NCBI RefSeq assembly: GCF_016903815.1
Contig: NZ_CP069973.1
Reading direction: 5' to 3' (one strand)
Origin: Escherichia coli
Lineage (GTDB): Bacteria; Pseudomonadota; Gammaproteobacteria; Enterobacterales; Enterobacteriaceae
DNA length: 64,000 nucleotides
The notes beneath the pieces were generated by a model that searched no databases, was not told where the DNA came from, and worked only from the letters and a program-made list of their open reading frames with translations. A program made the translations under genes and the position numbers. Below are positions 4,378 through 17,925 of the stretch, piece by piece (position 1 is the first letter of the stretch; each line of letters starts with the position of its first letter).

Positions 4378-4947
4378 TTATGCGCCCTGCCAGCGGGCAA
4401 AGAGATCTTCAGGAAGCGTTATGGCGAATTGATCGAGTACACGGTTAACCGTCTGATTTATCACATCATCAAGGGATTGCGGGCGATGATAAAACGCCGG
4501 AACGGGAGGCATAATCACCGCACCGATTTCTGCTGCCTGAGTCATTAAACGCAGATGGCCTAAGTGCAATGGTGTTTCACGTACGCAGAGCACCAACGGG
4601 CGACGCTCTTTCAGCACCACATCTGCCGCACGGGTCAGTAAGCCATCAGTATAGCTATGGACAATGCCGGACAGGGTTTTGATTGAACAGGGTAAAATCA
4701 CCATCCCCAGTGTCTGGAAAGAACCGGAAGAAATGCTGGCAGCAATATCGCGCGCATCGTGCGTCACATCGGCTGATGCCTGCACTTCGCGCAGGGAAAA
4801 ATCCGTTTCGAGGGATAAGGTCTGGCGCGCGGCCTGGCTCATCACCAAATGCGTTTCAACATCTGCGACATCGCGCAGAACCTGTAATAAGCGCACGCCA
4901 TAAATCGCGCCGCTGGCACCGCTGATGCCTACAATGAGTCGTTTCAT
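4378..4947 (-). CDS. ubiX: Flavin prenyltransferase UbiX
   Basis: 189-aa ORF starting MKRLIVGISGASGAIYG, directly downstream of purF. Confidence 0.92.
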   Translation of the reverse strand: MKRLIVGISGASGAIYGVRLLQVLRDVADVETHLVMSQAARQTLSLETDFSLREVQASADVTHDARDIAASISSGSFQTLGMVILPCSIKTLSGIVHSYTDGLLTRAADVVLKERRPLVLCVRETPLHLGHLRLMTQAAEIGAVIMPPVPAFYHRPQSLDDVINQTVNRVLDQFAITLPEDLFARWQGA

Positions 4948-5041: not shown

Positions 5042-6559
5042 TCATCCTTCGTTATGCATTTCGAGATTTTCCACTTCGTTCTGACGTTGCACTGCTTTGG
5101 CGTCATCATTACGTAACGTATCGAGGAAATCGAGGTAGCCCTGATCAACATCTTTGGTGACGTAGACGCCGTTGAACACCGAACACTCAAACTGCTGAAT
5201 ATCCGGGTTTTCAGCGCGAACGGCTTCGATCAGATCGTTCAGATCCTGGAAAATCAACCCGTCAGCACCGATGATCTGGCGAATTTCATCTACTTCGCGA
5301 CCGTGAGCGATAAGCTCCGTAGCGCTCGGCATATCGATACCGTAAACGTTCGGGAAGCGAATCTCCGGTGCCGCAGAAGCGAGGTACACTTTCTTCGCTC
5401 CGGCTTCGCGTGCCATCTCGATAATCTGCTCAGAAGTGGTGCCACGGACGATGGAGTCGTCGACCAGCAGGACGTTTTTATCGCGGAACTCGGCGCGGTT
5501 GGCGTTCAGCTTACGGCGCACGGACTTACGACGCAGTTGCTGACCCGGCATGATGAAGGTACGGCCTACATAGCGGTTTTTAACGAAGCCCTGACGGTAC
5601 GGTTTGCCCAGAATACGAGCAATTTCCAGCGCGATATCACATGAGGTTTCCGGGATCGGGATCACCACGTCGATATCCAGATCTTCCCATTCGCGGGCAA
5701 TTTTCTCGCCCAGCTTCGTGCCCATATTCACACGCGCGCTGTAAACGGAAATTTTGTCGATGAACGAGTCCGGGCGAGCAAAGTATACATACTCAAACAG
5801 GCACGGATTGCTGACCGGATTGTCAGCACATTGACGGGTAAACAACTGCCCTTCTTCAGTGATGTAAATCGCTTCGCCCGGCGCGACGTCACGCAGGAAA
5901 TCAAAGCCTAGTGTATCGAGCGCAACGCTTTCGGAAGCGACCATATATTCTGTGCGGTTCTCGTCAATATCACGTTTTCCCAGTACCAGCGGACGAATAC
6001 CGTTAGGATCGCGGAAAGCAACCATACCGTGGCCGATAATCATCGCCACACAGGCATACGCGCCGCGGATTAAGCGGTTTGTGGCAGCAATGGCAGCGAA
6101 AATATTGTCGGCTTCCAGCGGGTAGTGGCGGAAGTTGTCCAGCTCGCTGGCGAAGATATTAAGCAGAATCTCCGAGTCGGAAGTGGTATTGATGTGGCGG
6201 CGTTTTTCTTCAAACAGTTTTTTACGCAACTCGTGAGCGTTGGTCAGATTGCCGTTGTGGGCAAGCGTAATGCCATACGGAGAGTTAACGTAAAACGGCT
6301 GCGCTTCAGAGGCGCTGGAGCTGCCAGCCGTAGGGTAACGCACATGACCAATGCCCATATTGCCCTGCAAACGCTGCATATGGCGAGCTTCAAATACATC
6401 GCTCACCAGCCCGTTCGCTTTACGCAAACGGAAGCAGTTATTGGCATCTATGGTGATGATGCCGGCGGCATCCTGACCGCGATGCTGAAGCACCGTTAAG
6501 GCATCATAAATCGACTGGTTAACCGGCATAACACCGGCGATACCGACAATACCGCACAT
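5042..6559 (-). CDS. purF: Amidophosphoribosyltransferase
   Basis: 505-aa ORF starting MCGIVGIAG (N-terminal Cys glutamine amidotransferase) with PRTase domain. Confidence 0.95.
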
Positions 6560-6595: not shown

Positions 6596-7084
6596 TTACG
6601 CTCTGGGCAAGAAACTTGACGAGCTTTGCAGATAATCAAAAAACCATCTGATGATAAAACTGAACTGCGGGATCAGCTGTGATTTGCTCCAGTCTTCGCT
6701 TTTCGACACCCCGGTAAAGGAGTCGAGAAAGAAGAGAATGGCGGCAACAATCAACACACCGCGCAACGCACCGAAACAGACGCCCAGCACCCGATCGGTG
6801 CCTGACAACCCCGTTTTCTCCACCAACTGGCCTATCACGAAGTTCACGATAGCACCAACGATCAGGGTAGCGATAAACAGTACCGCGATGGCAATCCCAT
6901 TTCGAACCAGTTCGTCTTCAAAGCCCGTAAACCAGACTGACAGGTAAGTGTAGTAATGACTGGCAACAAAGAAAGCACAACCCCATGTCACCAGCGATAA
7001 CGCTTCACGAACAAAGCCGCGGATCAGGCTAACCAGAGAGGAAAAAGCAATCACCGCGATTATGGCGTAATCAATCCAGACCAT
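6596..7084 (-). CDS. cvpA: Colicin V production membrane protein CvpA
   Basis: 162-aa multi-TM ORF immediately upstream of purF. Confidence 0.9.
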   Translation of the reverse strand: MVWIDYAIIAVIAFSSLVSLIRGFVREALSLVTWGCAFFVASHYYTYLSVWFTGFEDELVRNGIAIAVLFIATLIVGAIVNFVIGQLVEKTGLSGTDRVLGVCFGALRGVLIVAAILFFLDSFTGVSKSEDWSKSQLIPQFSFIIRWFFDYLQSSSSFLPRA

Positions 7085-7140
7085 ATGTGTCCCACGATTT
7101 TACGCCCTGTCATCCTGTTCGGGGCGCATTCTAACAGAAA

Positions 7141-7156
7141 AAGAAAACGTTTGCGT
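7141..7156 (-). promoter_or_regulatory. PurR operator (PUR box) of the cvpA-purF operon
   Basis: Plus-strand AAGAAAACGTTTGCGT is the exact reverse complement of the PUR box consensus ACGCAAACGTTTTCNT, about 57 bp upstream of the cvpA start. Confidence 0.85.
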
Positions 7157-7223
7157 AGGGATTTCCTTCCCACGCATCAATAAAAATGGCGCTGAAAAAA
7201 TATTCAACGCCATCGACTTTTTA

Positions 7224-7338
7224 TGCCTTTGCGGCATCGGGCAATGCGTGTCGGATGCGGCGTAAACGCCTTATCCGACCTACGTTTCTACTCCTGCGTA
7301 GGACTGATAAGACGCGCCAGCGTCGCATCAGATAAGAC
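7224..7338. repeat. REP (repetitive extragenic palindromic) element cluster
   Basis: GC-rich imperfect palindromes of the cggatgcggcgtaaacgccttatccg type in the cvpA-dedD intergenic region. Confidence 0.7.
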
Positions 7339-7342
7339 CGTA

Positions 7343-7993
7343 TTAATTCGGCGTATAACCCATTACCACGCCACTTAAGCCAGAAAGTTGCTTCAACTCA
7401 CCCAGCGAACCTTTCAGCTTATCTTTCGAGGCATCTGGCCCAACCAGAATACGAGTAATTTTACCCTGCACTGGCGTGGATGGCGACGTATAAACCCGAT
7501 AACCGGCACCGCGCAGCTTACCGACAATCTCATTCACTTTATCGGCATTTTTCAGTGCGCCCAGTTGTACAACATAGGCTTTACCCGTTGGCGCTGCTTT
7601 TTCTTCCACGACCGGCTTCGGCGCAGGTGGTGCTTCAACCTTCGGTTTCGGCGGCTCTACCGGTTTCGGCTTCGGTGGGACGACCGGTGCAGGTTCCGGT
7701 TCAAACTCGGTGTTATTGGCTGCAATAGTGGCCGGATCGAGCGACGGTGCTGCGGCATCACCTGCCCGCACCTCTTCCGCTGCGCCTTCCGGCGGCTGCG
7801 TCGGCAGCGCCTGGGTGGCGGCTGGCATCATATCAGGCTCATCGCGATCGCCCGCTTTTGGCACCAGCGGGATAGCCGCGAACTCATCCTGATAATGTTT
7901 TTTCTGCCCGTCCAGCAGCCCTGGAAGTACAATCACCCCCAGCGCCACCAGCACGATCGTGCCCACTAACCGATTCTGAAACTTACTTGCCAC
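7343..7993 (-). CDS. dedD: Cell division protein DedD (SPOR domain)
   Basis: Pro/Ala/Lys-rich ORF with C-terminal SPOR-like domain; GTG start chosen at 7991-7993 (MASKFQNRLVG) rather than the longer track ORF. Confidence 0.85.
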   Translation of the reverse strand: MASKFQNRLVGTIVLVALGVIVLPGLLDGQKKHYQDEFAAIPLVPKAGDRDEPDMMPAATQALPTQPPEGAAEEVRAGDAAAPSLDPATIAANNTEFEPEPAPVVPPKPKPVEPPKPKVEAPPAPKPVVEEKAAPTGKAYVVQLGALKNADKVNEIVGKLRGAGYRVYTSPSTPVQGKITRILVGPDASKDKLKGSLGELKQLSGLSGVVMGYTPN

Positions 7994-16704: not shown

Positions 16705-17925
16705 TTAATCTTTCAGCTTGCGCATTACCAGCGTGGCGTTGGTGCCGCCGAAGCCGAAGCTGTTAGACATAACGGTGGTCAGTTCGCGATCGGTCGTTTC
16801 GGTCACGATGTTCAGACCCGCAGCCTGCTCGTCCAGCTCTTCAATGTTGATGCTCGGGGCGATAAAGCCGTGTTCCAGCATCAGCAGAGAGTAGATAGCT
16901 TCCTGTACGCCAGCAGCGCCCAGAGAGTGACCGGTCATTGCTTTGGTTGCAGAAATCGCCGGGCTCTTATCGCCGAATACTTCACGGATAGCCGCCAGCT
17001 CTTTCACGTCGCCAACCGGAGTCGAAGTACCGTGAGAGTTCAGGTAGTCGATTGGGGTATCAACACCGTGCATCGCCATCTTCATGCAGCGCACTGCGCC
17101 TTCGCCAGACGGAGCAACCATGTCTGCGCCATCAGACGTTGCGCCGTAGCCAACGATTTCAGCGTAGATATGAGCACCACGTGCCAACGCGTGTTCCAGT
17201 TCTTCGACCACCACCATACCGCCGCCGCCAGCGATAACGAAACCGTCACGGTGAGCGTCATAAGTACGGGAGGCTTTTTCCGGGGTGTCGTTGTATTTGG
17301 TAGACAGCGCACCCATCGCGTCGAATTCGCAAGCCATTTCCCAGCACAGCTCTTCGCCGCCGCCAGCAAACACGATGTCCTGTTTGCCCAGTTGGATCTG
17401 CTCTACTGCGTTACCGATACAGTGTGCGGAAGTCGCACACGCGGAGCTGATGGAGTAGTTAACGCCGTGAATCTTAAACGGCGTGGCGAGGCAGGCAGAA
17501 ACGCCGGATGCCATCGCTTTGGTGACCACATACGGGCCTACCGCTTTCAGGCCGCGCGGGCCGCGCATTGCGTCAGCGCCGAACACCTGAAAACGCGGGG
17601 AACCGCCGCCGGAACCTGCAATCAGGCCAACGCGCGGGTTATTCTGGTAAGCTTCCGGGGAGAGGCCAGCATCTGCAATTGCCTGCTCCATAGAAAGGAA
17701 TGCATAAATGGATGCGTCGCTCATAAAGCGCACAACTTTGCGGTCAATGAGGCCAGTGGTATCCAGTTTTACGTTGCCCCAGACGTGGCTACGCATGCCG
17801 GAATCCTTCAGCTCCTGAGAGAAAGTGATCCCTGAACGTCCTTCACGCAGAGATGCCAGGACTTCCTGCTGGTTATTACCGATGCTGGAAACAATGCCCA
17901 GGCCAGTAATCACTGCACGTTTCAT
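16705..17925 (-). CDS. fabB: 3-oxoacyl-ACP synthase I
   Basis: 406-aa condensing-enzyme ORF with active-site Cys context and C-terminal [10 protein letters not shown]. Confidence 0.95.

Follow-up and report, generated by a model that had tools for sequence, protein, structure and literature searches.

The locus raises the question of whether a 16-bp element located upstream of cvpA is an operator for PurR, and whether cvpA and purF are repressed together from it. The element occupies positions 7141 to 7156 of the window, which denotes the whole 64-kb stretch of DNA that was analyzed, and reads AAGAAAACGTTTGCGT on the plus strand and ACGCAAACGTTTTCTT on the strand that codes for cvpA and purF. 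The initial annotation had placed the element 57 bp upstream of cvpA. This distance is correct as a coordinate offset of 57, which corresponds to 56 bases between the box and the cvpA start codon (ATG at 7084..7082 on the minus strand). The gene neighborhood in the window is argT-ubiX-purF-cvpA-dedD-folC-accD-dedA on the Escherichia coli chromosome, and at least 80% of the length of a 1-kb query around the box was matched in 5423 of 5426 complete E. coli genomes, with purF, cvpA and dedD as the annotation at these matches. The stretch from the box to the cvpA start codon is identical in the window and in K-12 MG1655. The SNPs that separate the two sequences are scattered and all are situated farther upstream, for example a T/C difference at 7172 and changes in the REP region. 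The element at 7141..7156 is the long-characterized PurR operator of cvpA-purF-ubiX, which is unchanged in this strain and already known. In what follows, in vivo occupancy, in vitro binding, the identity of the corepressors and repression are taken from the literature, whereas the sequence, its non-randomness, the match to PurR sites, the position relative to the published transcription start site (TSS), conservation and the compact operon layout derive from the present analysis. The coordinates of the features are collected in Table 1.

Table 1. Positions of the operator, promoter elements, genes and upstream hairpin of the cvpA-purF-ubiX locus in the window.
Feature	Position	Strand	Remarks
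Intrinsic-terminator-like hairpin with T-run	7185..7214	-	12-pair stem; 28 nt upstream of box
PUR box (purF operator)	7141..7156	-	ACGCAAACGTTTTCTT; imperfect 16-bp palindrome with central CpG; -36..-21 relative to TSS
Inferred -35 hexamer, ACGCAA	7151..7156	-	Placed by 17-nt spacer upstream of TAGAAT and published TSS
-10 hexamer, TAGAAT (-13..-8)	7128..7133	-	Read from sequence, placed by TSS; 7 nt downstream of box
Discriminator, GCGCCCC, all G+C	7121..7127	-	Read from sequence; kept across genera
TSS of cvpA-purF-ubiX (G), +1	7120	-	Published TSS (PMC3415461); 36-nt 5'UTR
cvpA, 162 aa	6596..7084	-	First gene of operon
purF, 505 aa, amidophosphoribosyltransferase	5042..6559	-	36 nt after cvpA stop codon; without a PUR box of its own
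ubiX, 189 aa, flavin prenyltransferase	4378..4947	-	94 nt after purF stop codon; third gene of published unit

The identity of the element is established by comparison with the characterized purF operator and with published PurR binding data, both of which had been proposed as checks in the initial annotation. In K-12, the motif AAGAAAACGTTTGCGT was listed at 2,428,842-2,428,857 and assigned to the transcription unit cvpA-purF-ubiX (Cho et al., 2011, Table 1; PMC3159470). As cvpA starts at 2,428,785 in K-12, the offset of the motif is 57 nt there also, and the window and the K-12 ChIP-chip motif share both the 16-mer and its distance from the gene. Occupancy by PurR at this site was detected by ChIP-chip with a log2 enrichment of 1.77 solely when adenine was supplied, and cvpA-purF-ubiX was placed among the previously characterized PurR promoters (Cho et al., 2011; PMC3159470). 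The restriction of occupancy to adenine-supplemented cells fits with corepressor-dependent binding, the corepressors of PurR being hypoxanthine and guanine as described in reviews. The cvpA-purF regulatory fragment from -171 to +56 was the target of purified PurR in electrophoretic mobility shift assays (EMSA; Robertson et al., 2018; PMC5829826). The crystal structure of a PurR-guanine-purF operator complex and a DNA bend of roughly 97 degrees induced by PurR also are cited in reviews. The ChIP-chip and EMSA results thus support the assignment of a PurR operator upstream of cvpA.

The description of the box as a perfect, exact match to the PurR consensus requires qualification. The description stands for ACGCAAACGTTTTCNT, to which the box shows no mismatches and which is the only consensus form that it matches exactly. 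This form reportedly is that of the classic pur-regulon literature. The classic PUR-box consensus is believed to have been derived with purF as the prototype and, therefore, the exact match is partly circular. The description does not hold for the other forms, as one mismatch was evident with the PurR ChIP-chip/MEME consensus ACGNAAACGTTTGCNT (PMC3159470), one with the SwissRegulon PurR 17-mer ACGCAAACGTTTTCCTT as quoted (PMC4576408), and two with the RegPrecise ideal palindrome ACGCAAACGTTTGCGT. The half-sites ACGCAAAC and AAGAAAAC are symmetric at 6 of 8 positions in the arrangement ACGCAAA-CG-TTTTCTT, with the CG at positions 8-9. The site possesses the attributes by which a PUR box is recognized, namely a 16-bp imperfect palindrome with a AAACGTTT core and a central CpG. 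Perfect is an overstatement for what is a good PUR box and an imperfect palindrome. As the prototype site itself, the box is more than a mere good match.

The position of the box within the promoter was defined with a published start site. A total of 240 reads placed the cvpA TSS of K-12 at minus-strand position 2,428,821, yielding a 36-nt 5'UTR, and the sequence from -50 to +1 was given as GGAAGGAAATCCCTACGCAAACGTTTTCTTTTTCTGTTAGAATGCGCCCCG (Kim et al., 2012, supplementary file 2; PMC3415461). This sequence equals window positions 7170..7120 on the minus strand; the polymorphism at 7172 falls outside it. The box consequently extends from -36 to -21 with its center at -28.5, overlies the -35 position together with the greater part of the spacer, and has purF among its downstream genes. 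Overlap of the core promoter by the operator is typical of the pur regulon according to reviews. The inferred -35 hexamer ACGCAA comprises the first six bases of the box and matches poorly with TTGACA. The cvpA promoter was not called in a scan with the sigma-70 consensus because this hexamer is weak, and its location was taken from the published start site instead.

Conservation of the region was assessed with one genome per species at 80 cvpA loci from about 25 genera of Enterobacteriaceae, including Escherichia, Salmonella, Citrobacter, Enterobacter, Klebsiella, Raoultella, Kosakonia, Buttiauxella, Cedecea and Mangrovibacter. CvpA is at least 90% identical throughout this set, and the footprint is shallow as the loci are all close relatives. 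Upstream sequence was sufficient at 79 loci. The identical 16-mer was present 54-59 nt from the start codon at 78 of these, and the remaining locus bore a single substitution (ACGCAATCGTTTTCTT). The box is, therefore, conserved in orthologous upstream regions. Mean identity to the window among the 80 sequences was 99.9% in the box, 100% in the 7 nt between the box and the -10 hexamer, and 99.6% in TAGAAT, and fell to 46% beyond 7197. Within E. coli, exactly one copy of the 81-nt promoter segment was found in 5425 of 5426 genomes at a threshold of at least 95% identity. In the most divergent among the E. coli matches listed, the differences were outside the box, which was unchanged. The invariant block extends over approximately 7165..7118, and its length of ~48 nt is three times that of the PUR box. 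It takes in GGAAATCCCT upstream, and the spacer, the -10 hexamer and the discriminator downstream.

As the invariant block extends past both ends of the box, conservation is not specific to the 16 bp and on its own supports a promoter plus operator, not an operator specifically. The box might accordingly have been kept as -35 and spacer sequence of the promoter and not for PurR, with PurR regulation of the operon being weak or indirect. This reading is very improbable. ACGCAA is a poor sigma-70 hexamer, so that a promoter role alone leaves 16 invariant positions unexplained. Furthermore, the match to independent PurR sites is strong: a log-odds matrix was constructed from the 27 motif instances other than the cvpA site in Cho et al. 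(2011, Table 1), and the box scored 21.9 bits with this leave-one-out matrix, which is the top match on either strand of the whole 64 kb. By the same matrix the cvpA site ranks about 12th of the 28 listed PurR sites, the other 27 being scored in-sample. The adenine-dependent occupancy in vivo and the binding of the fragment in vitro also argue against a purely promoter-related role. Moreover, operator and promoter roles are compatible, as their overlap is the probable mechanism of repression. Operator-constitutive mutations within the box, by which repression by purines is lost while promoter strength is kept, reportedly were described by Rolfes and Zalkin in 1988, to whom footprinting of the operator also is credited. 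Overall, the site is almost certainly the operator at which cvpA-purF-ubiX is repressed by corepressor-loaded PurR.

The second part of the question is whether purF is controlled from the box together with cvpA, as the initial annotation had proposed in describing cvpA-purF as a single PurR-repressed operon. The three genes cvpA, purF and ubiX have been named as a transcription unit (PMC3159470, PMC3141248). They are located on the same strand with gaps of 36 and 94 nt, there is one dominant TSS, and the cvpA-purF order is conserved. Terminator-like matches between the genes of the operon were confined to coding sequence and occurred at chance frequency, and none was credible. In 79 of 80 species purF follows directly after cvpA on the same strand, mostly at a distance of 33-37 nt. 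When the 80 loci (~5.4 kb each) were scanned with the matrix at a threshold of at least 14 bits, a recurrent match was observed solely in the bin from -100 to -51 upstream of cvpA, at 79 loci, and no second box recurred near purF. Thus, purF is without an operator of its own and depends on the box upstream of cvpA.

It might be argued instead that the box controls cvpA alone and that most purF expression stems from a separate promoter within or behind cvpA. A TSS was reported at K-12 2,428,646, which is 386 nt upstream of purF (Kim et al., 2012; PMC3415461), and a start within cvpA is what this alternative would call for. However, the internal site was represented by 3 reads compared to 240 for the cvpA TSS. 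The 36-nt gap without a credible terminator, the linkage of the two genes in nearly all species, the lack of a second PUR box near purF, and the treatment of cvpA-purF-ubiX as one PurR-regulated unit in the literature also oppose the alternative, which is highly unlikely. The initial annotation was, therefore, sound in regarding cvpA-purF as one PurR-repressed operon, with the refinement that the operon also includes ubiX. The cross-species linkage covers cvpA-purF, and the assignment of a single unit is based on layout, the published TSS and the literature.

The internal TSS maps to approximately position 6945 of the window on the minus strand, inside cvpA, where a weak internal promoter is possible. 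Based on the ratio of reads, a trickle of PurR-independent purF transcription possibly emanates from this site.

The box also was evaluated against random expectation. By chance, 3.4e-5 occurrences of the exact 16-mer would be expected on the two strands of 64 kb, and the ACGCAAACGTTTTCNT pattern occurred once in the window compared to no occurrences in 100 dinucleotide-preserving shuffles. In shuffles of the window (n = 30), the leave-one-out matrix gave a best score of 18.2, and the maxima averaged 13.6. That the 16-mer is a chance likeness to a PUR box devoid of a regulatory role can be dismissed: loose matches with up to 3 mismatches are frequent by chance (mean of 0.84 per shuffle), but the match is exact, its score exceeds those of shuffled sequences, the box recurs at a fixed distance from cvpA in about 25 genera, and the site is a published target in ChIP-chip and EMSA.

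No convincing second PurR site was detected when the 64-kb window was scanned with the matrix. The sole candidate, ACCAAAGCGATGGCAT at 17508..17523 on the minus strand, is positioned ~400 nt inside the fabB coding sequence (open reading frame 16705..17925) and is the motif given for the weak PurR ChIP-chip region fabB-mnmC (Cho et al., 2011; PMC3159470). Even as a member of the training set, the candidate scored only 13.25 bits, a value no higher than is typical of shuffled sequence, and it is unconvincing as a PurR site on sequence alone.

The spacer between dedD and cvpA contains further elements. The hairpin upstream of the box (7214..7185) has a folding energy of -18 kcal/mol (z = -5.25), was matched in stability by none of 200 shuffles, and is conserved across genera. 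The probable roles of this hairpin are to terminate transcription of dedD and to insulate the promoter of cvpA. The rest of the spacer, ~7225..7340, resembles REP/BIME palindromic units, for example GTAGGTCGGATAAGGCGTTTACGCCGCATCCGACA. This stretch diverges between species and holds most of the SNPs relative to K-12, and the 1-kb query had a median of 6 matches per E. coli genome compared to 1 for the promoter segment. An inverted-repeat finder with a 9-nt exact seed returned nothing in 7160..7360, the REP-like palindromes being too imperfect for the seed. In an in vitro run-off microarray, the intergenic region upstream of cvpA was transcribed in the direction opposite to cvpA (PMC3141248). 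Transcription of 7085..7342 on the plus strand hints at a divergent or antisense transcript. The dedD gene (7343..7993 in the window) is 651 nt in length in a genome that is identical over the 1-kb query compared to 663 nt in K-12, and the difference of 12 nt may be located in the part of the protein that is rich in proline, alanine and lysine.

The discriminator that separates the -10 hexamer from the start site (TAGAAT-GCGCCCC-G) is nearly invariant in about 25 genera, with a 1-nt deletion in the C-run of one E. coli strain. GCGCCCC resembles the discriminator of rrnB P1, and this likeness suggests that the cvpA promoter may be sensitive to ppGpp/DksA. The proposal of an additional conserved input into the promoter besides PurR, for example ppGpp/DksA acting via the discriminator or a factor that acts at GGAAATCCCT, is tentative and rather doubtful. 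If ppGpp/DksA did act in this way, purF transcription would be under stringent control, on top of the inhibition that ppGpp is known to exert on the PurF enzyme. A literature search that combined purF with ppGpp, DksA or the discriminator retrieved solely the post-translational inhibition of the enzyme and nothing on the promoter.

The following sequence of events is envisaged for control at the operator. When purines are plentiful, PurR, a dimer of the LacI/GalR family loaded with hypoxanthine or guanine, would bind the 16-bp imperfect palindrome. Bound across -36 to -21 of the single strong promoter, the repressor would exclude RNA polymerase and thereby block initiation, a mode of occlusion that is suggested by the position of the box. 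Repression would jointly lower the expression of cvpA, ubiX and purF, the last of which specifies the enzyme of the first committed step in de novo purine synthesis. At low purine levels, the corepressor would be lost, PurR would leave the DNA and the operon would be transcribed.

The site is the textbook operator that places the first committed step in de novo purine synthesis under the control of purine availability. The PurR-DNA structures were solved with the purF operator as the DNA. The box can serve as a positive control in motif scans and is useful in annotating the strain; it raises no new question.

The closest counterpart of the site is the K-12 purF operator, the prototype PurR site of the PurR-corepressor-DNA crystal structures, which has the same 16-mer, the same distance to cvpA and the same gene order. 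The operator and core promoter are without any difference between the two. The site shares the 16-bp palindrome, the AAACGTTT core and the central CpG with other PurR operators (purT, purHD, purL, purMN, purC, purEK and glyA), which likewise usually overlie the core promoter and at which repression requires hypoxanthine or guanine. The purT operator, ACGAAAACGTTTGCGT, is more symmetric than the cvpA site, in which one half-site is AAGAAAAC. In contrast to the cvpA site, purC, purMN, purT and others were bound by PurR also without adenine (PMC3159470). The cvpA box is placed over the promoter, whereas the purB and purR sites are downstream roadblocks and the carAB site is far upstream at -128.5. 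More distantly, lacO, galO and the Cra/FruR box of the LacI/GalR family have in common with the cvpA site the binding of a dimeric repressor to a palindrome of roughly 16 bp with a central CpG. The hinge helices enter the minor groove at the central CpG step and bend the DNA, as described in reviews and as reportedly observed by Schumacher et al. in 1994. LacI is released by its inducer, whereas PurR needs its corepressor to bind. Compared with the LacI/GalR operators, the operator at cvpA is single, without looping between auxiliary operators.
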